From assembly GCA_903879805.1 (NCBI GenBank), contig CAIRMX010000004.1:1-46302 (forward strand): 46,302 bases of DNA. The letters are read 5' to 3'. The notes beneath the pieces were generated by a model. That model made no database searches, was not told the origin of the DNA, and saw only the letters and a program-made list of their open reading frames with translations. Numbering within the stretch: the stretch's first letter is position 1; every line of letters starts with the position of its first letter. The translations under genes were made by a program, and so were the position numbers. Shown piece after piece: positions 17,113 to 41,425 of the stretch. The stretch is from an uncultured Alphaproteobacteria bacterium (GTDB taxonomy: Bacteria > Pseudomonadota > Alphaproteobacteria > Rickettsiales > UBA1997).

Positions 17113-18336
17113 TTAAGAAATTTTTTGATTTTCTATTGCCGCCGCAAGAGCTGCAAGCCTTGCTACTAGCGAGTAGATTGACACCATTTTATTTTTTTCT
17201 AAACCAAGTTTTAGTTGGTTTTCCAACAAAGTTTCTAAGTCAAAAAAGCTAGCGCCAGCTGAATTTAAACTGATTTTTTCATCGCGAGATTCATTAACAC
17301 GAAACAGGTTTCCAACCACTTGGCCGTTGATTAGGTAAATCATCGGTTCAGCAATTTTATCGTCAATTTTGTCGAGAGTTTTAATGCCTTCTTGCACCAT
17401 CACCTGCGTGGTTTGTACTGAACCTTTGAGCATGTTCATTTTATTGCGCTCTTTCTTATTTATTTCCAAAACTTCTGTTCCAGAAAAAACCGGCCAAACC
17501 GCAATTCCGTAGGTTCCGTTATCAGCTTTAATGTAGCAATAAGGATCATCCGCAACACCATATTCTTGATATTTCTTGCGCAGATTTTCGATCATTAAAT
17601 CGACATTTTTAGCCAAATCTTCGAGGCCTTTTTGCTCTTTAAAATTCACATCTTTGTGCGACGTGTGCATTGAAGAAATCAGCCAAGGATCAATTTCTAA
17701 AATTTGCGCTAACTCGCCAGCCAATTGGTTGTAAATGTCAAAATGCTGCGACTTGGTTCTGCGATGCCAGCCCATATTTTTTGAAGGAACAATCGGGGTT
17801 GTTACATCTGCAAAAATTTCAGGAATGCCGTCAGTTAAATCATTATTTAACACAATCACATCAGCTTCGAACCCATCAATTGTAGAAATTTTTTCAGCTT
17901 TTTTAATAACAGGATGAAGCGTGATGAAGTGTCCATTTTCTAGGTCAATTTCAACTTTCTCAGCAAGCAAAGTTCCAACCAAAACCTCTGCGCTTGCCGA
18001 TAAAATTTCCTGCAAATAACGCACATTTTCAAGATAGCGCAAATTGCGCGTGTGGTTTTCGGGGATGATTAAAATCTTTTTTGCTTGCGGAAAATTTTTG
18101 CTAAAAAAATCACGGGCGATAATTTTAGCCTTTTCTTTTGAAACTTCAGAAAGGTTGTTAAAGCCAGCCGGAAAGCAGTTGGTGTCAATTGGCGCGATCT
18201 TTGTTTGAGAGTGCCTAAGATCAACTGAATTGTAAAAAAGCGCCGGATTTTGTTGAAATTTTTTTGCAAAAAAATCTTCAATTTCTTGAGTTTTGTCGCT
18301 GATTTTTTGCCAAAGAATTTCGGTAATTTTTTGCAT
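17113..18336 (-). CDS. gshA: Glutamate--cysteine ligase, divergent TIGR02049-type GshA
   Basis: SVDLR...APIDTNCFPAGFNNL, PENHTRN, LNNDL, KADNGTYG, QEGI, AEP motifs. Confidence 0.9.
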   Translation of the reverse strand: MQKITEILWQKISDKTQEIEDFFAKKFQQNPALFYNSVDLRHSQTKIAPIDTNCFPAGFNNLSEVSKEKAKIIARDFFSKNFPQAKKILIIPENHTRNLRYLENVRYLQEILSASAEVLVGTLLAEKVEIDLENGHFITLHPVIKKAEKISTIDGFEADVIVLNNDLTDGIPEIFADVTTPIVPSKNMGWHRRTKSQHFDIYNQLAGELAQILEIDPWLISSMHTSHKDVNFKEQKGLEDLAKNVDLMIENLRKKYQEYGVADDPYCYIKADNGTYGIAVWPVFSGTEVLEINKKERNKMNMLKGSVQTTQVMVQEGIKTLDKIDDKIAEPMIYLINGQVVGNLFRVNESRDEKISLNSAGASFFDLETLLENQLKLGLEKNKMVSIYSLVARLAALAAAIENQKIS

Positions 18337-18346
18337 TAGATAATTT

Positions 18347-18631
18347 TTAGTTGGTGAAATTTCCGGCGTAAGATTTCTGTTTTACTGACGCAACTTTTGG
18401 CTCTTCAATTTCAAAAACAAAATTACGACTTTGAGCAAATTTGATCGCCTCTTCTTTGCTGGCAAATTCAAAACGAAATTGCGACGAAGTGTCGCTTGCC
18501 GAAACCCAGCCGGTCACCGTATTTACTGATCTGATATTGGCTTCTTCAATTGGCGTCACCAACCATTTTTTGGTGTTTCTTTTGCCTGATTGCATTGCTG
18601 ATTTGGTCGGGCGAGAGATTTTTACTTTCAT
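18347..18631 (-). CDS. ETC complex I subunit conserved region (NDUFS4-like)
   Basis: PTKSAMQSG, GW-x-S-x-x-DT, F-x-SKEEAI-x-FA, KSYA-x-NF. Confidence 0.9.
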   Translation of the reverse strand: MKVKISRPTKSAMQSGKRNTKKWLVTPIEEANIRSVNTVTGWVSASDTSSQFRFEFASKEEAIKFAQSRNFVFEIEEPKVASVKQKSYAGNFTN

Positions 18632-18661
18632 GTTTTTAGAGATTTAGAGTTTAACAAATAT

Positions 18662-20425
18662 TTATTTTCCTACCGCAACACCTTCGCGCCTAGGATCAGC
18701 GCCGCCGGTGATTTTATTTTTTTCGAGCACCACTGCACTAATTCCACTAACAATTTCAATCACTTTAGTTTCGTGGCCCATCTTATTCAAAGCTGATTTT
18801 AAATTTGTGATATTTTGATTTTTCTCCAATTCCACCACATCATTTAAAACCACAAATGACGGCAGAGCAATCGCCTGCTGCACATCCAAACCAAAATCGA
18901 GATGATTCACAATCGCTTTTACAACAAATTGAATAATTCTCGGACCTCCGGGGGATCCTACAACCATCAGCAATTTGCCCTTCTCGTCAAAAACAAAAGT
19001 TGGCGACATTGAACTGCGCGGTTGTTTGTGTGGCTCAAGACGATTGGCAACTTTTTTGCCATTTTTTTGCGGCTCAAAAGAAAAATCTGCAAGCTGATTA
19101 TTTAGTAAGAAACCATCAACCGACAAGGCAGAGCCGAAGAAATATTCAATCGAGCTAGTCATTGCAACAGCATTGCCCTCAGCATCCACAATCGACATGT
19201 GAGTGGTTGAAGGCATTTCTGCCGCTTTGTTATTTAGCGTCAGATTTTTATTTTCGGGAGTAAATTTTCCAGCTTCTACTTTGGCAATTGCGTGATTTTG
19301 ATCAATCAAAGCGGCGCGAGATTTTAGGTATTTTTTATCAAGAAGTTTCGCCAAAGGAACCAGCGAAGAATCGCCCAAATACTCATTGCGGTCAGCGTAA
19401 GCCAAACGCGTTGCTTCAATAATTAAATGCACACTTTCCGCTGAATTTGGCTGCAATTTTGCTAAGTCAAAATTTTCCAAGATCCCTAAAATCTGCAACA
19501 TTGTCGCGCCACTCGAAGGTAATGGCATTGTACATACTTTATATTTCACACGATATTTAGCGCAAAGTAGCTCGCCTTTTTTGACACGGTAATTTTTTAG
19601 GTCACTTGCCGACAAATATCCCGCATTGGTTTTGGAATTTTGAACTGCACTGACAATATCATTTGTGATCTTGCCGTTGTAGAAGTCGTTAATTCCTTCT
19701 TTAGCAATTTTTCTAAAAGTTGTAGCCAGTTTTTTATTGGTAATTTTTTCACCAACCGCAAAAGGTTTGCCGTTTTTATTCAAATAAATTTCCGCAGTTT
19801 CGTCGAATTTTTTTAAGTAAGAAATGCTTGCCGAAAGATTGTGGAATCTCTCGCTCACCACAAATCCACCATCGGCAATTGCAATTGCTGGCTCAAAAAG
19901 TTGTGCCCAAGGCAACTTGCCGTATTTTTTGTGTGTTTCTTTCATCAGTTTTAAAGCACCCGGAACACCTACAGACATGCCGCCCTGCACCACATCGTTA
20001 AATTCACGCGGCTTGCCATTTTTATCCAAAAACATGTCGCTTTTAGAATTTGCCGGAGCGGTTTCGCGACCGTTAAAGTAAACTGTTTGGCCAGTTTTTT
20101 TGTCGTAATAAAGTAACAATGCCCCGCCACCGATGCCCGAAGAATGCGGTTCCACAACATTCAAAACCAATTGCGTTGCAATCATCGCATCAATTGCGTT
20201 GCCGCCTTTTGCCAACATTTCAGCACCAGCTTTGCTCGAAAGTTCGGTTGCAGACGCCACCATGTATTTTGTACCTTCGACAATTTTTAAATCACGAAAT
20301 CCCGAATCAGGCTCGCCCACCCAAACATCTGAAAGGCTAAATGAGCTTTTGTGATTTTTATGGGTGCAGGCGGGAAACGTCAAAACCGCAAAAATCAGGA
20401 AAATTTTGAGAAGATTATTTTTCAT
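18662..20425 (-). CDS. ggt: Gamma-glutamyltranspeptidase, predicted lipoprotein
   Basis: GGNAIDA, SGIGGG, STTHMS (Thr nucleophile), PRSSMSP, GSPGG, GGADPRR; lipobox-like FPAC. Confidence 0.96.
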   Translation of the reverse strand: MKNNLLKIFLIFAVLTFPACTHKNHKSSFSLSDVWVGEPDSGFRDLKIVEGTKYMVASATELSSKAGAEMLAKGGNAIDAMIATQLVLNVVEPHSSGIGGGALLLYYDKKTGQTVYFNGRETAPANSKSDMFLDKNGKPREFNDVVQGGMSVGVPGALKLMKETHKKYGKLPWAQLFEPAIAIADGGFVVSERFHNLSASISYLKKFDETAEIYLNKNGKPFAVGEKITNKKLATTFRKIAKEGINDFYNGKITNDIVSAVQNSKTNAGYLSASDLKNYRVKKGELLCAKYRVKYKVCTMPLPSSGATMLQILGILENFDLAKLQPNSAESVHLIIEATRLAYADRNEYLGDSSLVPLAKLLDKKYLKSRAALIDQNHAIAKVEAGKFTPENKNLTLNNKAAEMPSTTHMSIVDAEGNAVAMTSSIEYFFGSALSVDGFLLNNQLADFSFEPQKNGKKVANRLEPHKQPRSSMSPTFVFDEKGKLLMVVGSPGGPRIIQFVVKAIVNHLDFGLDVQQAIALPSFVVLNDVVELEKNQNITNLKSALNKMGHETKVIEIVSGISAVVLEKNKITGGADPRREGVAVGK

Positions 20426-22289
20426 ATTTTGCGCGAAAGATTTTAAAAATTGCAGAAGAGAAAATCAGAAAGCAACCTGACCAGATCAAGTAAATGAAGG
20501 GTTTGTAATAGGCGCGTACGGCGTAATTTTCTTCTTCATCCTTATTGCCAATCACTAAATAAAGGTCACCAAAAATTCCATGTTTGATGGAAGCTTCGTT
20601 GGTGGTTTGCTCGGAAATCGGGTAATAGCGCAGTTGTGGCGCGAGTTGACCAATTTCTTTGTCACCTTTTAAAATCACAAAATTGCCTTGGCGCGCTAGA
20701 AAATTTTTGCCCAAAGCATGTTCAATATCGATAAATTTAATTTCGTAATTGGCGATTTTTAGGGACTGGCCTTGCTTTAAATTAATCTCTTTTGTCAGCC
20801 CGAAAGACGAAGTTAGAACAATGCCAATGACAATTATGGAAAAACCAAAATGCGCCAAAGTCATGGCGATATTTTTGCGCGAAAGTAGCGTGATTAAGGC
20901 CGAGAAAATCGCCAAAAATAAAATAACAATTTGCAAAATATCAGCGCTTTTTTGGTAGAAAAAAGTGAGCGCCGTAATTGCCGCTGATGCCAATAAAACC
21001 AAGATGATTGGGCGATTATTGAAGCTAGATTTTTGTGAGTAACTCAACTGATTTGAAATCGCCAAAAACGCCAAGAAGGGCACGATTAAAATGCTGAAAA
21101 TTTTATTGTAGTAATCCGGCCCAATTGAAATGAATTGGTCGAAAAATCCGCGAGAAAAAATCGGGTAAATCGTGCCTAAAAGCACAACGAATAAAGAGAT
21201 GATCAGCACGTAATTATTGAACAAAATCGCGCCGATTTTGGACCAGAAGAAAATCTTTTTTTCGTCACTTTTTAGCTTCGACATTTTGGCGCCAAAAATT
21301 AGCAACCCGCCGCCACCAATTAACAAAATTAATCCGATGACGAAGAAGCCGCGCTTGGCATCAATGGCGAATGAATGCACTGAGGTCAAGACGCCAGAGC
21401 GCACGAGGAAAATGCCAAAGAGGCATAAAATGAAAGTAAGAACTGCTAAAAATGCGGTCCAAATTTTGAAAATTTCTTTTTTTTCTAACATCTTCAAGCA
21501 ATGCACCAAAGCGGTGGCAGCAATCCAAGGCATTAGCGAAATATTTTCCACCGGATCCCAAAACCAATAACCTCCCCAACCTAGCTCACGATAGGCCCAC
21601 CAAGATCCAAGACCAATTCCCAAAGTCAAAAATCCGTAAGAAAAAAACAGCCAGTTTTTTAAATTAGCGGCGAATTTTTGGTCGATTCTTTCGGTGAGAA
21701 GTCCGGCGATGGCGAATGAAAAAATTAGTGAGAAGCCGATATATCCGGTGTAAAGCATTGGCGGATGAAGCGCTAGGCCGATATCTTGCAGAAGCGGATT
21801 AAGGCCGAGCCCCGCTTCTGGAGCCGGAAAAATTCTTTCAAATGGGTTAGAAGTAAAAGCGGTGAAAGCAGCGAGAAGACCGATAATTGCTGATTGCGAC
21901 GAGCTGACGATGAGCTTTTGTTTAATGTCGATTTTGCTCAAAAGTGCGAAGCCGAAGCTGTAGGCTGAGATGATTGAAATCAATAGCAGCATTGATCCTT
22001 CGTGATTGCCCCAGCTACCGGAAATTTTGTAGATGAAAGGTTTTAAGTGGTGCGAATTTTGGTAAACATTGGCGACGGAATAGTCGGAGATGAGGAAGGA
22101 ATAAATTAAACAGCACTGCGTGAGAATCGCAGCGATTAGGGTTGCAGCGCTTAAAGCGAGAGTGATTTTTTCTAATTCGAGAAGTTTGGCGTGGGTGGTT
22201 TTTTTGAAAGAGATAAAGCTAAAAATCGGCAGGAAGATGCTAATTGAGAGGACTAATAGCAGTAGGGCAAAACCGATTATTGGGGACAT
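20415..22289 (-). CDS. ccmF: Cytochrome c heme lyase CcmF
   Basis: WGNHEGS, HPPMLY, WGGYWFWDPVEN, SVHSFA. Confidence 0.96.
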   Translation of the reverse strand: MSPIIGFALLLLVLSISIFLPIFSFISFKKTTHAKLLELEKITLALSAATLIAAILTQCCLIYSFLISDYSVANVYQNSHHLKPFIYKISGSWGNHEGSMLLLISIISAYSFGFALLSKIDIKQKLIVSSSQSAIIGLLAAFTAFTSNPFERIFPAPEAGLGLNPLLQDIGLALHPPMLYTGYIGFSLIFSFAIAGLLTERIDQKFAANLKNWLFFSYGFLTLGIGLGSWWAYRELGWGGYWFWDPVENISLMPWIAATALVHCLKMLEKKEIFKIWTAFLAVLTFILCLFGIFLVRSGVLTSVHSFAIDAKRGFFVIGLILLIGGGGLLIFGAKMSKLKSDEKKIFFWSKIGAILFNNYVLIISLFVVLLGTIYPIFSRGFFDQFISIGPDYYNKIFSILIVPFLAFLAISNQLSYSQKSSFNNRPIILVLLASAAITALTFFYQKSADILQIVILFLAIFSALITLLSRKNIAMTLAHFGFSIIVIGIVLTSSFGLTKEINLKQGQSLKIANYEIKFIDIEHALGKNFLARQGNFVILKGDKEIGQLAPQLRYYPISEQTTNEASIKHGIFGDLYLVIGNKDEEENYAVRAYYKPFIYLIWSGCFLIFSSAIFKIFRAKYEK

Positions 22290-24461: not shown

Positions 24462-25364
24462 CTAAACCGCCGGAGCATTTTTCGATTTGAAAAAATTCTG
24501 CTTCGAAAGATTCAAAATAAATTTCATGCTCACCAAAATCGTCACGCATCCGATGATTTTGCTTGCTGTAATTTCCTCTCCCAAAAACATCGCACCGAAA
24601 ATTGTGCCAAAAACCGGAATCAACAAAACCACGCTCACCGCCACTCGCGGGCCTTCTTCGGTGATTAATTTGAAATATAAAACATAGGCGATGCCGGTGC
24701 AAAGCAGGCCCAAGCCTAGTAGAGAAGAAGCAACTTTTGCGTCGATCAAGCTGAAATCGGCAAAAAATAAACTTGGCGAAAGCAGTAAAGCCACCGACAA
24801 AACGCTGCCCGCAGCCATGGTCATGGCATCAATATTTTTGCATTTGGCGTTAATGTATAAAGAGGCTCCGGCGTAAGAGGCGGTGGCAACTAAAATGGCG
24901 ATTACGGCAAAGCTGTAAGACCAAGTGATGTCTGCGGTGATGCAACCGTCGAAGTAAGTGATGACGATGCCAACAAGGCCAAACACCACGCCCAAAATTG
25001 CGTTTTTATCGACGAAACGTTTGAGGAAAAATATTGAAATCAAAACTTCAAACATCGGCACCGTGCCATCAAGAATAGCGGCGATTCCGCTATCAACGGC
25101 GCGCGAGGCCAGAGCAAATAAAGTGAAAGGAAAAGCCGAATTAAAAAAGCCAACAATGGCGTAATGTTTAAAATTTTTGGGGAGAAAAACTTTTTTTCTT
25201 TGAATCAAGCAAATGCCGTAAAGCAAAGCGCCGCCAAGCGCCAAACGCGAGAAGGCCACAAAATATGGAGATAACTCTGCAGCAGAAATTTTCGTAAAAA
25301 TCGCAAAGCTCGACCAAGTAATTCCAAGAACAATTAGAATGAATAAGTTGCTGTTTTTGTTCAT
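24462..25364 (-). CDS. EamA/DMT family transporter
   Basis: About ten TMs in two EamA repeats; WSSFA, FSRL, PVFG...LGE. Confidence 0.9.
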   Translation of the reverse strand: MNKNSNLFILIVLGITWSSFAIFTKISAAELSPYFVAFSRLALGGALLYGICLIQRKKVFLPKNFKHYAIVGFFNSAFPFTLFALASRAVDSGIAAILDGTVPMFEVLISIFFLKRFVDKNAILGVVFGLVGIVITYFDGCITADITWSYSFAVIAILVATASYAGASLYINAKCKNIDAMTMAAGSVLSVALLLSPSLFFADFSLIDAKVASSLLGLGLLCTGIAYVLYFKLITEEGPRVAVSVVLLIPVFGTIFGAMFLGEEITASKIIGCVTILVSMKFILNLSKQNFFKSKNAPAV

Positions 25365-25418
25365 AAATTTTCCTGAGTTGGATTTTTTTATGCGGTTTAT
25401 ATTGAAATTTGCTCCCGT

Positions 25419-25533
25419 AAATAAACACCCCTAACCCCTCCTTGAAAAGGAGGGGGATGCTCTAATCCGAGTTCAGAACTAAAGCCCCTCCTTTTCAAGG
25501 AGGGGTTGGGGGTGGTTATTCACAAACTCGATC
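25419..25533. repeat. Palindromic REP-like element, family B, copy 2 (inverted relative to copy 1)
   Basis: CACCCCTAACCCCTCCTTGAAAAGGAGGGG...CCCCTCCTTTTCAAGGAGGGGTTGGGGGTGGTTATT; spacer CTCTAATCCGAG is the reverse complement of CTCGGATTAGAG in copy 1. Confidence 0.88.
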
Positions 25534-25534
25534 T

Positions 25535-25585
25535 AAATAAAAAAACCCCGACTCTGAATTTCAGAATCGGGGTTTTTTATTTTTT
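25535..25585 (-). terminator. Intrinsic terminator of groESL (bidirectional shape)
   Basis: A-tract, CCCCGACTCTGAA-T-TTCAGAATCGGGG, T-tract, just downstream of the groEL stop. Confidence 0.88.
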
Positions 25586-25602
25586 CAAGAGCGACGGGGG
25601 TT

Positions 25603-27267
<1,665 letters not shown>

Positions 27268-27291
27268 TTAAGAATTTAATTTTTTACTTTA

Positions 27292-27391
27292 TTAGGTCCC
27301 TGAGCAAAGCACGTAGTGCGCCGTCGAAGGGCCTGAAAACCGATGTTCCGGCCCTTCGACGACGGCCTTCGGCCTTTGCTCAGGGACCTAA
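27292..27391. repeat. Palindromic element, family C, between groES and groEL
   Basis: TTAGGTCCCTGAGCAAAG / CTTTGCTCAGGGACCTAA outer stem and CGTCGAAGGGCC / GGCCCTTCGACG inner stem. Confidence 0.8.
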
Positions 27392-27395
27392 AACC

Positions 27396-27683
27396 TTATT
27401 CGATTACTGCTAGAATGTCTGATTCTTTTAGGATGATTAGCTCTTTGCCATCAACCTTAACTTCTGTGCCGCCCCATTTTGCGAACAAAACGCGGTCACC
27501 TTTTTTAACGTCTAAAGCAACTCTTTTGCCGTGATCGTCACGAAGTCCTTCGCCAACAGAAACTACTTTGCCTTCAGCTGGTTTTTCTTTGGCATTTTCT
27601 GGAACAATAAGGCCACCGGAAGTTTTGCTTTCGGCTTCAATGCGTTCAACAAGAACGCGATCATGTAAAGGTCTAACTTTCAT
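27396..27683 (-). CDS. groES: Co-chaperonin GroES
   Basis: [33 protein letters not shown]. Confidence 0.99.
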
Positions 27684-27743
27684 GTTTAGTTTGATTTAAG
27701 AGTTGAGGAGAAAAAATTTAATCTGTGGTGCATCGAATAACTA

Positions 27744-27771
27744 ACTTAGGAAAAATTTGACGCCTTACAAG
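27744..27771 (-). promoter_or_regulatory. Putative RpoH (sigma32) promoter of groESL
   Basis: Minus strand CTTG-N17-CCTAAGT, close to the alphaproteobacterial RpoH consensus; no CIRCE seen. Confidence 0.55.
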
Positions 27772-27790
27772 TAGCTAACAAAAAAAATTA

Positions 27791-28042
27791 TTAAGCCAAC
27801 AATTCATCAAGCTTGCCTGCAGCTTCCAAAGCATAAAGATCATCACAACCACCAACATGAAAATCGCCGATAAAAATTTGCGGCACCGTCATGCGGCCGC
27901 CGGATTTTTTCATCATTTCATTTTTAGTTTCTTCGTCAGTGATTTTGATTTCAGTAAAAGCAGCACCCTTTCTTTGCAAAAGCGATTTAGCGCGCACGCA
28001 GTAAGGACAGATTTCTTTGCTGTAAACTATGATTTGTTTCAT
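27791..28042 (-). CDS. grxC: Glutaredoxin 3
   Basis: CPYC, TVPQIFI, GGCDDL. Confidence 0.96.
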   Translation of the reverse strand: MKQIIVYSKEICPYCVRAKSLLQRKGAAFTEIKITDEETKNEMMKKSGGRMTVPQIFIGDFHVGGCDDLYALEAAGKLDELLA

Positions 28043-28051
28043 TAGGAAATT

Positions 28052-28498
28052 TTAAAATGTACCCGGATTAGATAAGACTCGCTGCTGCGCTTGTATTGAG
28101 GACTGCGGTTCTACGTTATTGTAGTAAGTTGGCGGAACGTAATATTGGTCAGCATCGTAATAAGGATATTGAGTGGTGGCAGGAATTGCGTAAGGATTTG
28201 AATAAAATCTCGATCCTCCTTGCGGCGGATAGTAACCCTGCTGTTGCTGCGGATAATAATAAGGTGCTGGTTGTGGCGCTTGTTGATATTGCGGAGGATA
28301 TGGCTGCTGATAAGGCTGCTGCTGATATTTTGGCTGTCCGTAATAAAATTGATTCGAGTTTGGCGCTGCCCTACCCGGTGAAAGCGCCGCGCCACCATCA
28401 TCATTATTTATACTATCCGCACAAGATGCTACCACGGCTAAAAAGCACATTGCACAAAAATATTTTGCTGCGGTTTTAAGTAAATTTTGGAACGACAT
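28052..28498 (-). CDS. Q/P/Y-rich lipoprotein, paralog 3 of tandem family
   Basis: ATG 28498; lipobox VASC; low-complexity linker; SRFYSNPY...YDADQYYVPPTYYNNVE motif. Confidence 0.8.
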   Translation of the reverse strand: MSFQNLLKTAAKYFCAMCFLAVVASCADSINNDDGGAALSPGRAAPNSNQFYYGQPKYQQQPYQQPYPPQYQQAPQPAPYYYPQQQQGYYPPQGGSRFYSNPYAIPATTQYPYYDADQYYVPPTYYNNVEPQSSIQAQQRVLSNPGTF

Positions 28499-28550
28499 TT
28501 TTAAAAAATTGATAACAAGAAACTGTGTAATCTCGAGCAGAGAGCGGCGC

Positions 28551-28578
28551 TTTATAGAAAGCATTTTCTCAGATTCAA
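28551..28578 (-). promoter_or_regulatory. Possible sigma70 promoter for paralog 3 and grxC
   Basis: Minus strand TTGAAT-N16-TATAAA followed by GC-rich GCGCCGC. Confidence 0.35.
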
Positions 28579-29159
28579 TAGCTCACTGACCTGCCTTGTG
28601 GCACCTGCGGCTCGATATTATTACGATAAGTTGGCGGCACATAAAATTGATCTCCATCATAACGAGGAGCCTGAGCTGAAGGTGGAATAGCATAAGGATT
28701 GGTATAATAACGCGATCCTCCAACATCAACCGGCGCTGCCTGTTGTGGTGGATAGTACACTGGCACCCCTACAGGCGCTGGTGGTTGCGGATAAGGTTGT
28801 GCAACATAAGTCTGTTGAGGAGCCGCAGAATAAGTAGGCTGAGGCACTATTGCAGCTGGAGGAAAAGCTTGGGGCTGATATGCTTGAGGAGCTTGCGGCT
28901 GTATGTAAGGCGATGGTGCTGCGTAAGTGGGCTGACGATAATAATAATCCGGCGCTACTCTTGTGGTTGCGGTATTTGGATCTCTAATTTGTGGCGATGC
29001 GCCAACATCAAATCCAGTTTTGTCGTAGAGATAAGTATCGCCATCATCAACGGCGCAAGAAGCGTTTAAAAATAAACAAACAGCAACAAGGGTTAACACA
29101 AGTAAATCTCTAAAATTTACTGCTCGGACCGAAGGAGTTGTTATTATCTTGTTCAACAT
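28575..29159 (-). CDS. Q/P/Y/A-rich lipoprotein, paralog 2 (start uncertain: ATG 29159 or GTG 29099)
   Basis: Hydrophobic stretch ending NASC; SRYYTNPY...YDGDQFYVPPTYRNNIE motif. The track's start at 29303 would overlap the upstream paralog heavily. Confidence 0.75.
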   Translation of the reverse strand: MLNKIITTPSVRAVNFRDLLVLTLVAVCLFLNASCAVDDGDTYLYDKTGFDVGASPQIRDPNTATTRVAPDYYYRQPTYAAPSPYIQPQAPQAYQPQAFPPAAIVPQPTYSAAPQQTYVAQPYPQPPAPVGVPVYYPPQQAAPVDVGGSRYYTNPYAIPPSAQAPRYDGDQFYVPPTYRNNIEPQVPQGRSVSY

Positions 29160-29424
29160 TTTTATACTGAGTTGGCGGCACGTAATATTGATCGAAATCG
29201 TAATATGGGTAATAATTTTGCGGTGGGTTGTAAGGGTTTGTGTAAGCTCTTGAATTCGGCCTAACGTAGCGATGATGATTTTGTGGATAAGGCTGGTGAG
29301 CATCCATCCTCACAGCGGGCTTGTTACCTGGTGGATAAACGTTATCTCTTTTACACGCAAAAGACAACGTTAACAAAAGTGCTAAAAAAATAAATTTCTG
29401 AATCTTTGATTTTTCTTTAGTCAT
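29110..29424 (-). CDS. P/Y/N-rich lipoprotein, paralog 1
   Basis: Basic n-region, lipobox SFAC; SRAYTNPY...YDFDQYYVPPTQYKNVE motif. Confidence 0.8.
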   Translation of the reverse strand: MTKEKSKIQKFIFLALLLTLSFACKRDNVYPPGNKPAVRMDAHQPYPQNHHRYVRPNSRAYTNPYNPPQNYYPYYDFDQYYVPPTQYKNVEQDNNNSFGPSSKF

Positions 29425-29541
29425 TAAAATTACCGCACTATTTCAAAACTTGATTAGACAGTAGCGGTAACAGCAATGAAAATCAATCAACCACTCTTAA
29501 AAGAATCAACCTCACCAACTACGTCCTAAAATGACATTTGT

Positions 29542-30624
29542 ATGACACAAAATTCTGATCAAAAATTCATCTCTTACGCTCTCAAACTAGCTAAACAAAA
29601 TCTTGGCATAACATCGCCTAATCCAGTTGTAGCCTGTGTAATCGTGAAAGATAGTGAAATTATTTCCACCGGTGTCACCGCCAAAAACGGCCGCCCTCAC
29701 GCTGAAAAAATTGCCATTGAAAAAGTTGCTGACAAAAAAATTCTCCAAGGTGCAGAACTTTACGTAACGCTTGAACCCTGCTCTCATTTCGGTCAAACCT
29801 CACCTTGTGCTGACGAAATTATTAAATTTGGTTTTAAAAAAGTCGTGATCGCAACCAGCGACATTGACGAAAGAGTCAATGGCCGCGGCATTCAAAAACT
29901 GCGCGACGCCGGAATTGACGTGACTTGCGGCATTTTAGAAAAAGAGGCGCGCGAAATTAATCGCGGCTTTTTTAAAGCGCGCCAAAGCGGCTTGCCTTTT
30001 ATCACGCTAAAACTTGCCACCAGTTTAGACGGCAAAATCGCCACTAAAACTTTCGACAGCAAATGGATCTCTTGCGAAAAATCGCGGCTTTTTTCACACC
30101 ATTTACGCTCAATTAATGACGCGATTTTGGTTGGGGCAAATACGATTCGAAAAGACGATCCTAGCCTTGATTGTCGCATTGCTGGTCTTGAAGATTTCTC
30201 ACCAAAAAGAGCAATTATTTCCAGCTCGCTTGATTTAGATTTAAGCGCTCAAATTTTTCAAAATTGCGACAAAATTCCCACCGTGATTTTAAGCAATAAA
30301 TCTTGCGACAAGTTTGAAAATTTAATTCTCTGCGCTGAAAAAAATGGTAAAGTTGATCTGCTTGACGCAATGAAAAAACTATGCGCAAGCGGCGTTAATT
30401 CTGTGTTAATTGAAGGTGGGCAAAATATTGCGACGCAATTCTTAAGAGAAAATCTGGTCGATGAATTAGTCTGGATTCGCAACTCAAAAATTATCGGCAA
30501 TGACGGAATTGCCGGAATTGGAGAGTTGGGTTTTATGAGAATTTCGGAAATATTGGATGGCTTTGTCAGGGTAAGTGCTCGTGATTCTGACAGTGACTTA
30601 ATTGAGGTTTTTGAGAAGAAATAG
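29542..30624 (+). CDS. ribD: Bifunctional riboflavin biosynthesis deaminase/reductase
   Basis: PNPVVAC, PHAE, TLEPCSH...PC, LATSLDGKI, IEGG. Confidence 0.96.
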   Translation: MTQNSDQKFISYALKLAKQNLGITSPNPVVACVIVKDSEIISTGVTAKNGRPHAEKIAIEKVADKKILQGAELYVTLEPCSHFGQTSPCADEIIKFGFKKVVIATSDIDERVNGRGIQKLRDAGIDVTCGILEKEAREINRGFFKARQSGLPFITLKLATSLDGKIATKTFDSKWISCEKSRLFSHHLRSINDAILVGANTIRKDDPSLDCRIAGLEDFSPKRAIISSSLDLDLSAQIFQNCDKIPTVILSNKSCDKFENLILCAEKNGKVDLLDAMKKLCASGVNSVLIEGGQNIATQFLRENLVDELVWIRNSKIIGNDGIAGIGELGFMRISEILDGFVRVSARDSDSDLIEVFEKK

Positions 30625-30628
30625 AAAA

Positions 30629-30684
30629 TTGGACCCTTGATTTTGCTGGTCAAAAGCCAATTTTCTACAGCTGTAGAAAATTCA
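30629..30684. repeat. 56-bp dispersed element with perfect 24-bp palindrome, copy 2
   Basis: TTGGACCCTTGATTTTGCTGGTCAAAAGCC-AATTTTCTACAGCTGTAGAAAATT-CA. Confidence 0.85.
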
Positions 30685-30692
30685 AATTTTAG

Positions 30693-31877
30693 CTAAACCA
30701 CCCGCTTCAAAACTTCCCGATAAACCTTGATTGTCTCATTACACATCTTCTCGTTCGAAAAATTCTCTTCGATATTTTTTCTACCAGCCACGCCCATTTC
30801 ATCGGCTTCTTCTTTTGGCATTTCCAAGGCCTTGTCGATTAGTTGAGCAAATTTTTCAACATCCCCCACTTCCACCAAAAATCCGGTTTTACCGTCAATT
30901 ACAGTTTCAAGTGAACCGCCAATTTTAGTGGCAATAATAATTCTGCTCGATGCTTGTGCCTCAATGGCGATGCGGCCGAAAGCCTCAGCGCGCACGCTTG
31001 GACAAACCACCAAATGCGACACTGCGTAAGCGGTTGGCATGTCTTTGCAAATGCCGCAAAGTTGCACTTTTCCGGCTAAGTTTTTTTCAACGATTTTATT
31101 TTCGATTCTTTTTCTAAATTTTTTGTGACCGTGATCCGAGCCAATCATGACGCAGAAAAAGTCATTTTTTACTTGCGACAAAGCTTCAATCAAAAACTCG
31201 TGACCCTTCCAAGCAGTGAATCGAGCCGGCATTAAGATAATTTTTTTATCATCCGGCAAATGCCATTTTTTACTCAAATCAATAATGCGACTTTTTGAAA
31301 CTTTAGCGTAATCAAAATATCCCAATTCAGCACCGCGTTGGATCGTCACGATTTTATCGGCAAGTGACGTGAGGTGATTTTTTTGATAATTTTTAATCAG
31401 ATAATCTTTGATAAATCCTGAAACAGCGATGATCTCGTCAGCCTTTAACATCAAGGCGTTGTAGATTCTTTTAAGTGGAAAGATCTTCCAGCCAAAAAGA
31501 TTTAATGAGTAAGTTCCGTGAACCGTTGCGACTAATTTTGTGTGAGTTTTTTTGCAGGCAAAATAAGCGCTCCACATTGGCGCTCTTGATCTGACGTGAA
31601 CAATATCAACGTGATATTCTGCGATAAGTTTGGCGATTTTTTTATTGTTAGAATAGATCGTCAGTGGATTTTTGCTGTGAACCGGAAGCTCGATGTGGGC
31701 AATCCCCGCCTCGCGCAATTGATAAACTAAAATACCACCTTTTGAAACTACGATCGGTTCAAAGTCAGATTTTTTTAACGCCTTAGCAATATCAATTACA
31801 CCGCGCTCTACTCCGCCGCTTTGCAAGCCCGGCAGAATCTGCATCACTACAGGTTTTTTCTCTTGGGAAATTTCCAT
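30693..31877 (-). CDS. GT4-family glycosyltransferase
   Basis: GGVERG, HVRSRAP, R...WKGH, EAFGRIAIEAQA. Confidence 0.92.
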   Translation of the reverse strand: MEISQEKKPVVMQILPGLQSGGVERGVIDIAKALKKSDFEPIVVSKGGILVYQLREAGIAHIELPVHSKNPLTIYSNNKKIAKLIAEYHVDIVHVRSRAPMWSAYFACKKTHTKLVATVHGTYSLNLFGWKIFPLKRIYNALMLKADEIIAVSGFIKDYLIKNYQKNHLTSLADKIVTIQRGAELGYFDYAKVSKSRIIDLSKKWHLPDDKKIILMPARFTAWKGHEFLIEALSQVKNDFFCVMIGSDHGHKKFRKRIENKIVEKNLAGKVQLCGICKDMPTAYAVSHLVVCPSVRAEAFGRIAIEAQASSRIIIATKIGGSLETVIDGKTGFLVEVGDVEKFAQLIDKALEMPKEEADEMGVAGRKNIEENFSNEKMCNETIKVYREVLKRVV

Positions 31878-33480: not shown

Positions 33481-35268
33481 ATGAAAAAGATTTTTACCCT
33501 AATTTTTGCAGTCTTTTTTTTGCATTTTGAAGCCGCCTTTTCTGCCAGCAGCGATTGGCATGAAACTAAAAGCAATGGCGCCAAAGCAAGGTTGATCGCC
33601 AGTTTTTACAAAGATGCTTCCGGCACAAAAAAATTAATCGCCGGCATTCATTTTAAACTTGGCGATGGCTGGAAGATTTACGGCAACGACGCCGGCGGCA
33701 TCGGCATGCCTCCAAGCCTTGATTTCTCTACTTCAAAAAACTTTGCCAAAGACAATATTATTTGGCCAAAAGCCGAAGCCGGCGAAGAAAAAATTGGCGA
33801 CGAGACCATCAAATTCGCCTTTTACAAAAATGAAGTTGTCCTGCCAATTGAAGTTGAATTACAAGATTTATCGCAAGCCACCGAACTTACAGTTAAGCTG
33901 GATTACGGCTTGTGCAAAGATGTTTGCATCCCTGTGAGCGAAAATTTCACATTGAAAGTTTCTGATGAAATTGACCAAGAATCTTTGGCAGAAATTCAAA
34001 AATTTTTAGAGAAAGAAATCACCGCAACAAAAGAAGTCGTCACCCAAACTAAACCAAAAGCCAAGCCTATGTTCACCTTGCTTTACGCCATTTTGCTAGC
34101 AATTTTCGGCGGAGCAATTTTAAACATCATGCCTTGCGTTTTGCCGGTTTTATCAATCAAGCTGATCTCGGTAATTAAACATTCGGAAGCGCCAATTGCA
34201 GGAATTCGCTTCGCTTTTCTCGCAACAATTTGCGGCATTTTATCCTGCTTTTTTGCCTTCGCTATTCTTGCCACAATCATCAAATTTACCGGCAATTCTC
34301 TAGGCTGGGGACTGCAATTTCAAAATCCTTATTTCCTAATTTCTCTAATTGTTATTTTGGTGCTTTTTTTAGGCAATCTGCTCGGATTTTTCGAAATTAA
34401 TTTTAATCAATTTCTATCAACAATTCTGAATAAAAAAATCACCGAAGGCGAAGACAAGAAAAATATTTTTATCCCCAATTTTCTCTCTGGAGTTTTGGCG
34501 GTAATGCTTGCCACTCCTTGTTCGGCACCATTTTTAGGATCAGCAATTTCTTTCGCCCTCACCCAAAATTTTGTAGTTATTTTTCTGATCTTCCTCTTCA
34601 TCGGCTTTGGTTTTTCTTTGCCTTACATCATCTTAATCGTCTCACCAAAACTAGTTTATCTGCTTCCAAAACCCGGTAACTGGATGGTGCAAATCAAACA
34701 AATGCTCGCCGGACTTTTGGCCGCAACCATCATTTGGTTGGTTTACGTTCTCTCTCACATCATCGGTTCTTTTCCGGCATTTTTGGCGGGAGCGCTTGCA
34801 ATAACCTTGCTTGCCGCCATCAAAATCAAATCCGAGTTTTTAAAATATACGACAATTGCAATCATCGCCGCGTGCACTTTGGCTTTGCCGTCAAATCTGC
34901 AACATCGCCAGCAAATGCAGGAAGAATTCTGGAACAATTTTAATGAAGCCGAAATTTATCAACATGTGGCGCGCGGCGAGGTTGTGGTAGTTGACATCAC
35001 CGCTGATTGGTGCTTGAGCTGCAAATTCAATAAAATCAGAGTTTTGCAAAATAAAGAGGTGGTGGAGAAATTAAAAGGTGGCACCATTATTGCCATGCGC
35101 GGCGACATCACCAAGCCCCAAGAAGAAATCATGAATTACCTGCACAAGAATAATCGCTTTGCCATTCCTTTTAACGCGGTTTACGGGCCACACGCTCAGC
35201 AGGGTTTACTTGCCAGCGAACTTCTTACTAAAAAAGAGCTTTTTGAATTAATCGAAAAAGCTAAATAA
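33481..35268 (+). CDS. dsbD: Protein-disulfide reductase, DsbD/ScsB family
   Basis: Signal peptide, GWKIY and CxxxC in the N-domain, LNIMPCVLP and ATPCSAP TM cysteines, TADWCLSC thioredoxin domain. Confidence 0.88.
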   Translation: MKKIFTLIFAVFFLHFEAAFSASSDWHETKSNGAKARLIASFYKDASGTKKLIAGIHFKLGDGWKIYGNDAGGIGMPPSLDFSTSKNFAKDNIIWPKAEAGEEKIGDETIKFAFYKNEVVLPIEVELQDLSQATELTVKLDYGLCKDVCIPVSENFTLKVSDEIDQESLAEIQKFLEKEITATKEVVTQTKPKAKPMFTLLYAILLAIFGGAILNIMPCVLPVLSIKLISVIKHSEAPIAGIRFAFLATICGILSCFFAFAILATIIKFTGNSLGWGLQFQNPYFLISLIVILVLFLGNLLGFFEINFNQFLSTILNKKITEGEDKKNIFIPNFLSGVLAVMLATPCSAPFLGSAISFALTQNFVVIFLIFLFIGFGFSLPYIILIVSPKLVYLLPKPGNWMVQIKQMLAGLLAATIIWLVYVLSHIIGSFPAFLAGALAITLLAAIKIKSEFLKYTTIAIIAACTLALPSNLQHRQQMQEEFWNNFNEAEIYQHVARGEVVVVDITADWCLSCKFNKIRVLQNKEVVEKLKGGTIIAMRGDITKPQEEIMNYLHKNNRFAIPFNAVYGPHAQQGLLASELLTKKELFELIEKAK

Positions 35269-36744: not shown

Positions 36745-37677
36745 TTATCTGCTCTTTTGCTCTTGTTCTGCTTGCAGAGCCGGAGCCGTAATTTTTGGTG
36801 AAAATGACGGGGTATTTAGAAATGCTTGGGACGAGTCTAACATTCTATGAAAAATATTACTGGTCATTTTATAAACTCCTTCGCTGCCTTGGGTATAAAT
36901 GCGATTATCTTTTTGCATCTGGTAAAAACCTTCAATTCTTGACGCCTCAATAGCACTAGTCGCAGCTCTAATGTCTTGCTCATGAATTTCTTGCATACTC
37001 TTGTCATAACTATCTGGTGAAGAGTCCAAAACCTCACATACTTGAGATGAAATCATCTCAGCTGTGTGAACATTCGATTCCTCAAGCTCATTGTTAAAAT
37101 TTTCTCCGCAAGTCGAAGCGAGATTTACAGCATGAGCAGCGCCAACTAACAATATTACTAACTTTGGTGCTTCATTTGACGAAACCATCAACCTAACATT
37201 CTTAACCATTTCAGCTATTCGCAACTTCTCATACTCTTGCGCTTTTTCTTCTAATCTTTCGTGATAATGCTCATCTTCCTCAATACTGGAACATATTTCC
37301 GTCATAAGTTCCGGAGAATCTAGCTGACAATAGCGCATATTATTTTCTTCGCAAAATTGCATCATCGCTCCAGTCGCAACTGTATCCAAGATAAGTGAAA
37401 TATCGTGACAATTCTTACCACCATCGCGCTCTACATAAGCATTCATCACGCGGCCTTGGATCAAATCCACTTTTCCCTCACGCAATTCTTGGATGACGCT
37501 TTCGAAAGTTTCCCTATCTTCTTCGTGGGCTGTTTTCTCAAAACCAAAAACCACATTTTCTCGATCAACCACTCCATGTTTTATGGCTTTTTGCAACTCT
37601 TGCATCATGGCATAGCGACTAGCAATGTCGTCATGCGTGATCCCCACTACTAAAAAAGAGAGTTTTTGCTTACCCAT
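36745..37677 (-). CDS. Hypothetical acidic protein, probable EreA/ChaN/TraB-TIKI-like fold; candidate secreted effector
   Basis: Spaced motifs LVVGITH, VFGFE, R...MV..V and LLVGAAH; no signal peptide; PSxSP...Q-rich tail ending SR. Confidence 0.55.
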   Translation of the reverse strand: MGKQKLSFLVVGITHDDIASRYAMMQELQKAIKHGVVDRENVVFGFEKTAHEEDRETFESVIQELREGKVDLIQGRVMNAYVERDGGKNCHDISLILDTVATGAMMQFCEENNMRYCQLDSPELMTEICSSIEEDEHYHERLEEKAQEYEKLRIAEMVKNVRLMVSSNEAPKLVILLVGAAHAVNLASTCGENFNNELEESNVHTAEMISSQVCEVLDSSPDSYDKSMQEIHEQDIRAATSAIEASRIEGFYQMQKDNRIYTQGSEGVYKMTSNIFHRMLDSSQAFLNTPSFSPKITAPALQAEQEQKSR

Positions 37678-37688
37678 AACTAAACCTC

Positions 37689-38516
37689 TTAATCCAACGG
37701 ATTATTATTCATCAATTTAGTGGCATCGATCTCTTCTCGCATGCCGTCCTCACGTTTTTCTTTTTTGTCAAAAACTTTTCTCATTTCTTCTAACTGTCTT
37801 TGGGTTGGATCAAATTCAATAGTGCAACGTGGAGAAACCGCAAACTCACCGCTATCAACCAAAGCGGGGCGATGAATGCCAAAGCTGTAAAAACCGTAAG
37901 TTGAAGATTGGAAGATTTTGCCTTTGTAAGAAAATAAATAGCAGTCATAGCTAGTGTCGTAAGCAGTGTTATAGCCTCTTGAAACTATGCTTGGAACAAT
38001 ATCGCCAACATAACAAAACCACGCATCAGTGCCGATTGTTCCTTCAATTTCAGAGGTTTTGTCGCTTGATCTGTAGCGCAAAATTTCTTCGCTGCTGCCA
38101 TCCTTATCAAGATCAAGTACGGTTTTTTGCATTAGAATTTTCGCCTCGTCACGATGGTCTTGGTTAAATTGCTTAATCGCATTAAGCCTTTCGCTAGGTG
38201 CCATGTATTTTGCCGCATCTTCGGAGGGCACATCTTCCTAAGTTAAAAATTGAAAATTGGTGTTTTTTTCAGGAATGACAAATTCAGCGTTACGCAGTCT
38301 CGGATTTGCAAAATTCTTATTTTCCGGCCCATTAACAATACGCACCACCTCCTCGCAAAGCTGGCGTTCATTGTCTCGAATGTAATCCGCTTCTTTTGAG
38401 ATGTGGAATTTAGAAGTATTAACTTTTGCCTTAGTTTTTGCTTCAGCCTTAAAACCTACGCCCACCATCAAAAAAGCCGCAAATAGAGCCAGAAATTTTC
38501 TTAAAGATTTTGTCAT
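37689..38516 (-). pseudogene. Secreted hypothetical protein interrupted by one in-frame TAG at 38238-38240
   Basis: Track ORFs 38238..38537 and 37689..38231 share a frame (...FLT-TAG-GAA-GAT-GTG...); signal peptide ending AEA from ATG 38516; DLDKDG motif downstream. Confidence 0.7.
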
Positions 38517-38603
38517 GTTTGGTAAAAAATGGCGCAAGATTTATTAGTGGGTTTTTGTTAAATTTGAGGCTTTCTTTACGCAATTAGTTTCTGCAATCGA
38601 TAT

Positions 38604-40291: not shown

Positions 40292-41425
40292 TTAAACAAT
40301 AAAATGATAACCGGAAAGCCAAACGCAGTATAAAAAATACATTACTGGAATTGATATGAAAAAGACCAAACCAGCGCTGCCACCATTAATCATTTTGGCG
40401 ATAACCAAAAGTATCGGAGCCTGAAACCAGATATATCGCGGCATGCTCCAAAGCCCTGTAGATAGCGGTATGAAAGTGCAAAATAATGAAAAAGCAGCAA
40501 GCTGAAAATGCTTTTTTGCAAGCAAATATACGCAGCATAAAATTGCTCCCACACTAACCACCGATGCCATTTGGTAAAATGGCAGTTCAGAATTAAAGCC
40601 ATCAATAAGATTTGCAAAAGGGTTGGAAACTTCGCGATCCCAAGCTTTTCCGGCGTGGAAAAAAGCAAAAGCATCACCACTATGAAAATGCAAATATGTC
40701 ATAAATAAAGCTAAGCCAGAAACTAGCATCAAGCCGGCCAGAGCTATTTTTACTTTTTGCCAAGGAGCTGCTTTAAAAAAATCTTTAAAATTAGAAATAG
40801 CATAAGAGACCGCCATTACAACGCCAACCAGTCTAGTTGCGCTGAGAAAAATTCCGCAAGCACCGCAAGAAAAATTCTTCCGCTGCTTCATAAAATAAAA
40901 GCTGACGCAGGTAAAAAATAAAAATAACGACTCGGTATAGCCGGAATTGGGGTAAATTGCGTAAGGATTAAAAGCCACCACCGCACCTGCGGTGATAAAA
41001 TAAATTTCAGGAAAATATTTTTTGCAAAATTTCATGAAGGCAAAAATCGCCAACAGAAAAAATATTTTACCAACAATTATTAGAGCCGCTTTAGTTGAAA
41101 CTCCGATCAACCATTGCAACGCTGCAGCAATGATTGGCAATAATGGAAAAAAGGCAAAATTTTTGCTTTCAATTGTATCAGAAGAATATCGATCATAGCC
41201 CCTGTCGATAATTGAAGAATACCAATCGCAATCCCAGCGACACATTTCCAAATAAGTAGTTTGGATGCTTGATAAAACACAGAATTCTAAAAGTTGCTGC
41301 AGGGCAAATAACACCAGCGCCGCTAATGCTAATTTAATATTGGCCTTAGCACTACAATCATCAGCACTTAACTCATGATCTAATTCGACCAGACAGGTCA
41401 TTCTCCAGTGCTTAAAACGGATCAT
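40292..41425 (-). CDS. GT-C fold membrane glycosyltransferase, PIG-V/GT76-like
   Basis: RWDCDWY..I...GY, FAFFPLLP, YTESLF, ATR..G, SMPRY; multi-TM. Confidence 0.8.
   Translation of the reverse strand: MIRFKHWRMTCLVELDHELSADDCSAKANIKLALAALVLFALQQLLEFCVLSSIQTTYLEMCRWDCDWYSSIIDRGYDRYSSDTIESKNFAFFPLLPIIAAALQWLIGVSTKAALIIVGKIFFLLAIFAFMKFCKKYFPEIYFITAGAVVAFNPYAIYPNSGYTESLFLFFTCVSFYFMKQRKNFSCGACGIFLSATRLVGVVMAVSYAISNFKDFFKAAPWQKVKIALAGLMLVSGLALFMTYLHFHSGDAFAFFHAGKAWDREVSNPFANLIDGFNSELPFYQMASVVSVGAILCCVYLLAKKHFQLAAFSLFCTFIPLSTGLWSMPRYIWFQAPILLVIAKMINGGSAGLVFFISIPVMYFLYCVWLSGYHFIV

Follow-up and report, generated by a model that had tools for sequence, protein, structure and literature searches.

What do three adjacent small genes do for a bacterium when their products carry no recognizable folded domain and share a lipoprotein-type signal peptide, a low-complexity chain and one terminal peptide? 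This question is raised by genes A, B and C, an array at positions 28052 to 29424 of contig CAIRMX010000004.1 (GenBank assembly GCA_903879805.1), from an uncultured alphaproteobacterium of the order Rickettsiales; the contig stretch analyzed here, 46,302 nucleotides in full, is referred to as the window. The array genes are real and under purifying selection, and the family they define is confined to about half of the genera of one family-level clade. As to function, we give a probability of roughly 0.45 to the reading that their products are outer-membrane-type lipoproteins acting as flexible tethers, which would hold out a single docking peptide, at three reaches, to a conserved partner in the envelope. 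The elements of the array are listed below, with open reading frame abbreviated as ORF.

29110 to 29424, minus strand: gene A (short class), 104-aa precursor, supported by its ORF, alignment and family profile match; signal peptide MTKEKSKIQKFIFLALLLTLSFA then C, a 31-residue spacer, the C-terminal motif and a tail ending ...SSKF
28575 to 29159, minus strand: gene B (long class), 194 aa from the ATG at 29159, in a frame open up to 29303; signal peptide ...LVAVCLFLNAS then C, the membrane-proximal second motif, a 111-residue spacer, the C-terminal motif and the tail ...SVSY
28052 to 28498, minus strand: gene C (medium class), 148 aa from MSFQN, in a frame open up to 28564; signal peptide ...CFLAVVAS then C, a 67-residue spacer, the C-terminal motif and the tail ...PGTF
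29355 to 29353 (A), 29057 to 29055 (B) and 28423 to 28421 (C), minus strand: codons of the Cys, read from the ORFs
29173 to 29253, minus strand: bipartite C-terminal motif of A, SRAYTNPY...YDFDQYYVPP, found by regular expression and alignment
28632 to 28715, minus strand: bipartite C-terminal motif of B, SRYYTNPY...YDGDQFYVPP, found likewise
28130 to 28213, minus strand: bipartite C-terminal motif of C, SRFYSNPY...YDADQYYVPP, found likewise
28929 to 29033, minus strand: membrane-proximal motif of B, YLYDKTGFDVGASP...RVAPDYYYRQP, residues 43-77 of B and 8-42 residues past the Cys

The initial annotation of this region had described three consecutive minus-strand genes with signal peptides ending in SFAC, NASC, and VASC, and each of these elements was confirmed. 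Gene B, when started at its ATG at 29159, overlaps the 3' end of gene A by 50 nt, and its MLNK or MLSK start is kept in close orthologs (P0003, P0005, and P0006). Its frame can be extended across the motif of gene A (242 aa, 28575 to 29303), as low-complexity coding keeps other frames open; the ORFs of 97 to 127 aa that overlie B and C in other frames and on the opposite strand are artifacts of the same coding, and public gene calls of 240 to 273 aa carry spurious N-terminal extensions (P0082, P0117, P0146, P0199, and P0212). Across the whole genome of the bacterium (1.88 Mb, 95.6% complete), A, B and C are the only ORFs of at least 60 aa with a 30-residue segment that is at least 50% Pro, Gln, and Tyr, the spacer of C peaking at 93% in one such segment, and they are also the only matches to the family profile, with no internal stops; the array is therefore not a chance feature. 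Values of dN/dS (the ratio of nonsynonymous to synonymous substitution rates) were 0.13 to 0.37 in six ortholog pairs, computed per gene against two orthologous arrays (L001 and L002), and while the counts are small all lie below 1. Between the paralogs, the DNA that encodes the motif is only 69-79% identical, indicating that the duplications are old and that the copies have not been kept alike by recent gene conversion, and the spacers are not tandem repeats at the DNA level. Together with the recurrence of the paralog classes across genera, these data bear out the earlier proposal of old duplications under selection.

The N-termini have the features expected of a signal peptide. Read directly, gene A encodes a positively charged n-region followed by a hydrophobic h-region (MTKEKSKIQKF-IFLALLLTL), and B (..K..R..R-LLVLTLVAVCLFL) and C (..K..K-YFCAMCFLAVV) are built in the same way. 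The lipobox is canonical in C (V-A-S-C), looser in B (N-A-S-C) and A (S-F-A-C), and recognizable family-wide: by a simple lipobox test 110 of 113 aligned relatives have a Cys after a hydrophobic stretch, as do 131 of the 134 copies from the loci described below. The three relatives that fail the test have truncated or atypical N-termini and still show FSC or NSC, and the Cys column is invariant in the family alignments. Among the 110 relatives, position -1 is Ser in 79, Ala in 21, Gly in 5, and Asn in 5 (Ser, Ala, or Gly in 105), position -3 is Leu in 34, Val in 22, Ala in 18, and Ile in 11 (85 together), and Asp never occurs at position +2. The genome also encodes the lipoprotein machinery Lgt (PF01790, E = 1.8e-74), LspA (PF01252, E = 1.6e-34), and LolA (PF03548, E = 7e-21). 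Judged by sequence, the precursors are of lipoprotein type, with a signal peptide of the signal-peptidase-II type and an invariant Cys, and the lipobox, the non-Asp residue at +2 and the presence of Lol point to the inner leaflet of the outer membrane as their probable location.

At the other end of the proteins, the three-way alignment of A, B and C has 27 invariant columns, nearly all of which fall in the end-piece SRxYxNPY...YDxDQxYVPPTxxxNxE, and a hidden Markov model (HMM) of the motif recovers the three proteins with E-values of 9.6e-17, 3e-23, and 8.6e-24, respectively. The shared C-terminal motif of the initial annotation is thus well supported. In 65 diverse copies it has nine invariant and four nearly invariant positions, and in the 113 aligned relatives the positions S, R, Y, N, P, Y...D, Q, Y, P are invariant. 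The gap between its two halves is 11 residues in 81 of the 111 distinct locus copies (range 8-14), and ...VPP is followed by a tail of 6-29 residues. Of these copies, 74 end in Tyr or Phe (Tyr 44, Phe 30), 14 in Arg, and 3 in Lys, and 38 have a K-[YF] end. PPxY is present in only 54 of the 111, and we accordingly rejected mimicry of host WW-domain (PPxY) ligands as the conserved function. A second motif, [LVFI][YF][DN]xxGF...APDYYYRQP, located 8-42 residues past the Cys, is confined to the long class; it was found in 71 of the 110 relatives that could be classified among the 113 aligned, and in 46 of the 134 locus copies.

Between the Cys and the C-terminal motif lie spacers that are rich in Pro, Gln, and Tyr and differ in length (31, 111, and 67 residues in A, B and C), as had been noticed earlier. 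Across relatives the spacers have 31-115 residues (median 79) and consist of 17.5% Pro, 17.3% Gln, 15.4% Tyr, and 5.2% Asn, with Pro, Gln, and Tyr making up 50%. The AlphaFold2 model of B, based on a 113-sequence alignment, has a mean pLDDT (predicted local distance difference test) of 54.9 and a pTM (predicted template modeling score) of 0.24, and shows one structural element only, the signal-peptide helix (residues 16-34). The mature proteins are predicted to be disordered throughout because this helix is all that AlphaFold2 finds. When the motif region alone was modeled (65 sequences), the mean pLDDT was 66.5 and the pTM 0.18, there was no secondary structure, and only the first ~20 residues reached a pLDDT of ~76; in these predictions the motif appears to behave as an extended short linear motif rather than as a domain. 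A search of the ESM Atlas for look-alikes of C returned unnamed clusters with a best score of 0.83, below the useful range. The description of a membrane-anchored, disordered family with no globular domain consequently agrees with the Cys counts, the encoded Lgt, LspA and LolA, and the predicted structure.

The initial annotation had left room for the motif to be part of a characterized family. None was found: no Pfam or NCBIfam model matched A, B or C at E ≤ 1, Pfam searches with 27 family members gave only three single chance-level matches, and a search of PDB sequences with the motif profile gave one chance-level match (E = 0.59). A profile of the three proteins retrieved 316 relatives at E ≤ 0.01 in a word-indexed search, all of them unnamed or "hypothetical" and none with a Pfam domain. 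The motif HMM search that had been suggested for charting distribution and copy number was run with HMMER on the motif alone (65 copies) against 1.84 billion representative sequences, and returned 246 proteins at E ≤ 0.001, 87 of them at E ≤ 1e-10. The best 150 of these 246 are 77-273 aa long and carry the motif at or near the C-terminus in nearly all cases. The longest relatives (230-273 aa) are over-extended calls, in which either the motif of an upstream paralog is read out of frame or the start is placed too far upstream. A search for longer, fused motif proteins found none, the motif never being joined to another domain. Literature searches returned no paper containing the motif strings in the library covered, and those on freshwater Rickettsiales metagenome-assembled genomes (MAGs) and lipoproteins returned no description of the family in the titles and abstract openings of the matches listed. 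The family merits a database entry, as public gene calls leave its members unnamed and sometimes over-extend them.

A scan of one genome per prokaryotic species identified 70 loci, all in MAGs titled Rickettsiales, Alphaproteobacteria, or Pseudomonadota by their submitters, apart from a few with evidently automatic labels ("Rickettsia typhi," "Rhizobium sp.," and "Lentimonas sp."). In what follows, f1 denotes the window's own GTDB family, g-numbers are genera within it, and other f-numbers are other families of the order. Among 400 genomes sampled from the window's GTDB order, of which one (G321) was not scored, 35 matched: the window's own, 33 of 39 others of f1, and one weak match elsewhere (G110, E = 8.8e-5) that we regard as spurious, since it spans profile positions 11-75 and leaves the motif uncovered. 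Within f1 the motif profile was found in 51 of 81 genomes (that of the window included) and in nine of 17 genera, namely g1 (11/11), g2 (7/7), g3 (10/10), g4 (5/5), g6 (7/9), g7 (2/2), g8 (3/4), g194 (4/4), and g195 (1/1). There was no match in g5 (0/9), g9 (0/8), g10 (0/1), g11 (0/3), g190 (0/1), g191 (0/1), g192 (0/2), or g193 (0/2). Presence in f1 is hence genus-wise all-or-none, and the family may mark a poorly known freshwater lineage of Rickettsiales.

The organization of the array is conserved along with its proteins. Over 71 sources (the 70 loci and the window), the co-oriented copies detected by the motif HMM number one in 27, two in 26, three in 17, and four in one; these counts are lower bounds, since some loci are cut by contig ends. 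Complete three-copy arrays have the order short, long, medium in 15 of 16 cases, with median spacers of 33, 96, and 59.5 residues. In two-copy arrays the short protein (median 32) precedes the long one (87) in 25 of 25, and single copies have a median spacer of 60. The spacer-length classes span several genera, and three tether lengths, as was originally supposed, are a conserved property of the family.

Position-specific invariance within a disordered chain that otherwise drifts is the signature of a peptide-domain interface, and for this reason we infer that the motif docks onto one partner. The invariant positions of the motif, the fixed spacing of its halves, its constant C-terminal placement and its never being fused are traits that we take to be those of a binding epitope, and the partner is probably bacterial because the family tracks bacterial genera in an all-or-none manner. 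The proposed arrangement would have the lipid anchor in the inner leaflet of the outer membrane, and the Pro/Gln/Tyr-rich spacer would be a flexible tether whose sequence drifts while its length is class-specific (~33, 96, and 60 residues, encoded in that order). The end-piece, SRxYxNPY-11 aa-YDxDQYYVPP (~30 residues), would bind one conserved partner in the bacterial envelope, which may be the cell wall or else a folded protein of the periplasm or membrane. A short tail comes after it, in most cases with an aromatic last residue. One ligand would in this way be held at three distances from the membrane, with reach as the selected property of the spacer. If docking is true, spacer length itself is a selected trait, and the measurement of periplasmic distance by bacteria becomes directly testable in a very simple system.

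Outer-membrane lipoproteins with disordered linkers are known to organize the Gram-negative envelope, examples being the accessory subunits of BAM (the machinery for beta-barrel assembly), LpoB, and RcsF. The architecture of the array proteins therefore belongs to a known kind, that of disordered outer-membrane lipoproteins working through short motifs or linkers. To our knowledge, all such lipoproteins end in, or attach to, a folded domain. What is new relative to the known examples is the lack of any folded part, a signature motif that is C-terminal rather than membrane-proximal, and three conserved tether lengths per array. LpoB and RcsF of Escherichia coli consist of a long disordered linker and a folded globular end domain; the array proteins resemble them in having a lipid anchor and a flexible linker of tens of residues that would let a distal element reach a partner, and differ from them in that the distal element is a ~30-residue peptide with no predicted fold. 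Searches with the array proteins found no sequence similarity in any library. We know of no counterpart to three length classes in one operon. Lpp, a helical trimer that is joined through its C-terminal Lys by YkuD-type enzymes, is likewise a small lipoprotein whose C-terminus links the outer membrane to another layer, and the array proteins could similarly make such a link and set a spacing. A covalent tether of the Lpp type was nevertheless rejected, as there is no helix beyond the signal peptide, Lys is C-terminal in just 3 of 111 copies, and YkuD was not found in the genome.

The BAM complex is one candidate for the partner because BamF is absent and the long-class motif sits where the proposed BAM-docking region of BamF and BamC sits. 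BamF is an outer-membrane lipoprotein of the Caulobacter BAM complex (Pfam DUF3035, PF11233), in which the disordered N-terminal ~50 residues contain a conserved membrane-proximal motif proposed to dock onto BAM; it was reported in all alphaproteobacteria then examined, and in Caulobacter its gene lies next to lspA (Anwari et al., 2012, PMC3359395). The array proteins share with BamF and with the N-terminal region of BamC the features of a small outer-membrane-type lipoprotein, here alphaproteobacterial, with a non-Asp residue at +2 and a disordered stretch after the Cys, and there is a positional likeness between ...APDYYYRQP of the long class, ~40 residues past the Cys, and ...PPDF.LRPP at a similar distance in BamF relatives. 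The differences are that BamF relatives are rich in Lys, Glu, and Ala after the motif whereas the array proteins are rich in Pro, Gln, and Tyr, that the defining C-terminal motif has no BamF counterpart, and that the short and medium classes have no membrane-proximal motif.

DUF3035 was not found in the window's genome (E ≤ 0.1) or in any of 39 other f1 genomes. Over the order it was found in 236 of 400 genomes, and three families had it throughout (40/40, 40/40, and 18/18). The window's genome encodes BamD, at 15057-15638 of contig C115. The neighborhood of lspA, which is on a different contig from the array, holds no small lipoprotein gene, the ORFs there being a YajC-like one followed by a long membrane-protein one (named by eye). 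YkuD LD-transpeptidases occur in seven of 81 f1 genomes, too sparsely for any correlation with the array. Two envelope components that are usual in alphaproteobacteria, BamF and the YkuD LD-transpeptidases, thus appear to have been lost in the f1 clade. A bolder form of the tether model, which we consider doubtful, treats the array products as lipid-anchored "molecular rulers." These would place the docking peptide at three genetically fixed distances (~33, 60, and 96 residues) and, acting via BAM or via the cell wall and inner-membrane machinery, would organize the envelope, or its spacing, in a Rickettsiales clade that lost BamF and LD-transpeptidase tethering. If that were so, an envelope would be organized by short linear motifs and spacer length alone, with no folded domain.

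Several observations weigh against docking at a conserved partner. The only guides to a periplasmic rather than a surface location are the lipobox and the E. coli-type +2 rule. The counts of array order come from kin genomes and so are not independent events, the neighboring genes (ribD, the glutaredoxin gene grx, and groESL) are housekeeping genes with no envelope link, and expression is only hinted at by short RNA-library contigs that cover parts of A and B. Homology to BamF was also rejected: PF11233 matched none of A, B, and C at E ≤ 1 and none of the 27 family members, the hhalign probability was 6.3% for whole proteins against four DUF3035 proteins of the order, and it was 0.3-0.9% for the mature N-terminal regions (58 long-class against 14 DUF3035 sequences). 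Moreover, f4 (0/11) and f23 (0/28) also lack DUF3035 and yet do not have the array family, and eight f1 genera have neither, which makes the complementarity between BamF and the array family weak.

An alternative that we regard as rather unlikely is that the proteins are surface-exposed adhesive lipoproteins that stick the bacterium to a eukaryotic partner, with the end-piece serving in export, anchoring, or host-surface binding. Compositions rich in Tyr, Pro, and Gln resemble those of adhesive and elastomeric proteins, and the spacers, with half of their residues Pro, Gln, or Tyr and 15% Tyr, are in this respect like extensins, glutenin-type repeats, and mussel adhesive proteins. One of the 27 family members has a weak match to Extensin_1 (E = 0.024). 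There is, however, no homology to those proteins and there are no tandem repeats, and the array proteins differ from them in their bacterial lipid anchor and specific invariant end motif. A clade-restricted family would suit a lifestyle-specific trait, and members of the freshwater-restricted family UBA1997 have been reported, by CARD-FISH (fluorescence in situ hybridization with catalyzed reporter deposition), as attached to the surface of cryptophyte algae (preprint, 10.1101/2023.01.31.526412); adhesion would gain weight if f1 is UBA1997. In that event the lineage is one that the preprint locates between free-living and host-associated life, in transition from the first to the second, and an envelope or surface protein specific to the clade would be a candidate for a part in the host-associated lifestyle. 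Counting against adhesion, no surface-export signal or system is known for the clade, eight of the 17 f1 genera do not have the genes, and the words "lipoprotein" and "adhesin" occur nowhere in the main text of the preprint. The PPxY-type host-binding motif is present in just under half of the copies, and the most conserved part of the proteins is an invariant peptide and not a sticky region, which argues for a conserved partner that is not a host.

The initial annotation had favored, as one possibility, that the Tyr-rich motif self-assembles. In such a model homotypic association, driven by the motif or the spacer, would yield a membrane-tethered condensate or gel or, less plausibly, a functional amyloid. 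Tyr "stickers" within spacers of Gln, Pro, Gly, and Ser favor phase separation, and the low-complexity, Gln- and Tyr-rich chains with regularly spaced Tyr, the presence of one motif in three paralogs (taken as co-expressed), and the lack of a folded domain are all compatible with this. Yet a Pro content of 17.5% is atypical of amyloid-forming Q/N-rich prion domains, and this, along with the eight Pro in the 36-residue motif, opposes a cross-beta amyloid. No strand appears in either AlphaFold2 model, and the spacers lack DNA tandem repeats. In addition, invariance at set positions and a constant distance between the half-sites typify a specific interface and not compositional stickiness. Homodimer prediction for the 56-residue motif region scored 0.00, which bears neither for nor against self-binding. 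We consequently found no support for amyloid or condensate formation, which we judge improbable, and the term "prion-like" finds no support in spacers with this content of Pro, Gln, and Asn, being meant for Pro-poor, Q/N-rich chains with cross-beta structure.

A further alternative concerns the genes around the array, which are as follows.

27791 to 28042, minus strand: grx, glutaredoxin gene (Pfam PF00462, E = 1.2e-19), 9 nt downstream of C
27396 to 27683, minus strand: groES (Pfam), downstream of the array
25603 to 27246, minus strand: groEL (Pfam), downstream of groES
29542 to 30624, plus strand: ribD (Pfam), divergent from the array across a 117-nt intergenic region

The grx gene is directly downstream of the array in 63 of the 71 sources, mostly with a 4-nt gap, groES is downstream in 60 and groEL in 58, and divergent ribD is upstream in 66. 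The adjacency to groES-groEL is conserved synteny and need not imply a functional link. One reading that would imply it is that the array proteins are decoys or sensors of envelope stress: to a periplasmic PDZ protease or to BAM, their disordered, aromatic-ended chain would pass for the C-terminus of an unfolded outer-membrane protein, which would tie the state of the envelope to the neighboring grx-groESL stress genes. Aromatic C-terminal ends are recognized by PDZ domains, two-thirds of the distinct copies end in Tyr or Phe, many of them after Lys, and the array probably shares a transcript with grx and has groES-groEL directly downstream in ~60 of 71 sources. We nevertheless think this very improbable: the terminal aromatic is not invariant, one subclade ending in Arg; the tail, on inspection of the sequences, lacks the alternating hydrophobic pattern of a beta-signal; and synteny within one clade may reflect descent rather than function, with five array-less f1 genomes differing at groES. 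Finally, that A, B and C are non-functional, as chance ORFs or decaying remnants, is hardly conceivable, for although the low-complexity DNA does hold several frames open, with overlapping ORFs and over-extended public gene calls as the result, it is already contradicted by hundreds of relatives with an invariant Cys and motif, by dN/dS below 1, by the conserved order and length classes, and by the absence of stops inside the matches of this genome.

With regard to transcription, there is no terminator-like site between C and grx, which are probably co-transcribed; the only minus-strand terminator-like hairpin in the window comes after groEL, at 25505-25485. This hairpin is contained in a long, strongly palindromic stretch after groEL (25417-25584), which is probably a bidirectional terminator common to groEL and a downstream EamA-type gene. 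An Rfam search of 25000-31000 gave only sub-threshold matches to microRNA precursors, on both strands, at the same palindromic stretch. The CIRCE operator had no match within three mismatches, and neither a promoter and terminator scan nor an alignment of 16 upstream regions revealed a convincing conserved promoter for the array. Within the 107 nt that separate grx from groES lies cttgtaaggcgtcaaatttttcctaagtt (27700-27790, minus strand, upstream of groES), which we take to resemble a heat-shock sigma-factor promoter, so that groESL may own a promoter besides read-through from the array. The five f1 genomes that lack the array have another gene order at groES and no hidden diverged copy there. 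Separately, in two g5 genomes an extra ORF of ~120 aa is inserted between groES and groEL (L077, 1106-1468, minus strand; L078, 1823-2188, plus strand); it is flanked by short repeat copies translating to ...FQFSIFNF... and resembles a mobile insertion of small size.

Six metatranscriptome runs from six studies contained 5-15% of the sampled words of 27300-29600, and four of these were compared, as contigs, with the locus. One 151-nt contig covers 28810-28956 inside gene B with four differences, another of 151 nt covers 29327-29477, that is, the start of gene A and 53 nt upstream, with none, and two contigs cover 29433-29600, the rest of the array being uncovered. The groES gene was covered in all four runs, in X2 and X4 over its first 36-72 bases only. 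As DNA carry-over into the libraries is possible, these contigs are no proof of transcription, strand, or level.

Elsewhere in the window, Pfam gave no match at E ≤ 1e-5 for five ORFs of 99-598 aa (36745-38537, 40292-41425, and 42443-44239, minus strand); they sit in an apparent cluster of glycosyltransferase, methyltransferase and epimerase genes for surface polysaccharide. A 204-aa ORF at 10985-11599 (plus strand) encodes a eukaryote-type histone methyltransferase domain, DOT1 (PF08123, E = 2.3e-16), which is unusual in a bacterium and may be a candidate for host interaction. Near the array there is also a glutathione-related cluster with GshA (glutamate-cysteine ligase), gamma-glutamyltranspeptidase, and the glutaredoxin (17113-20425 and 27791-28042), and the window further includes genes for CcmF (20415-22289) and a DsbD-type thiol:disulfide protein (33481-35268).

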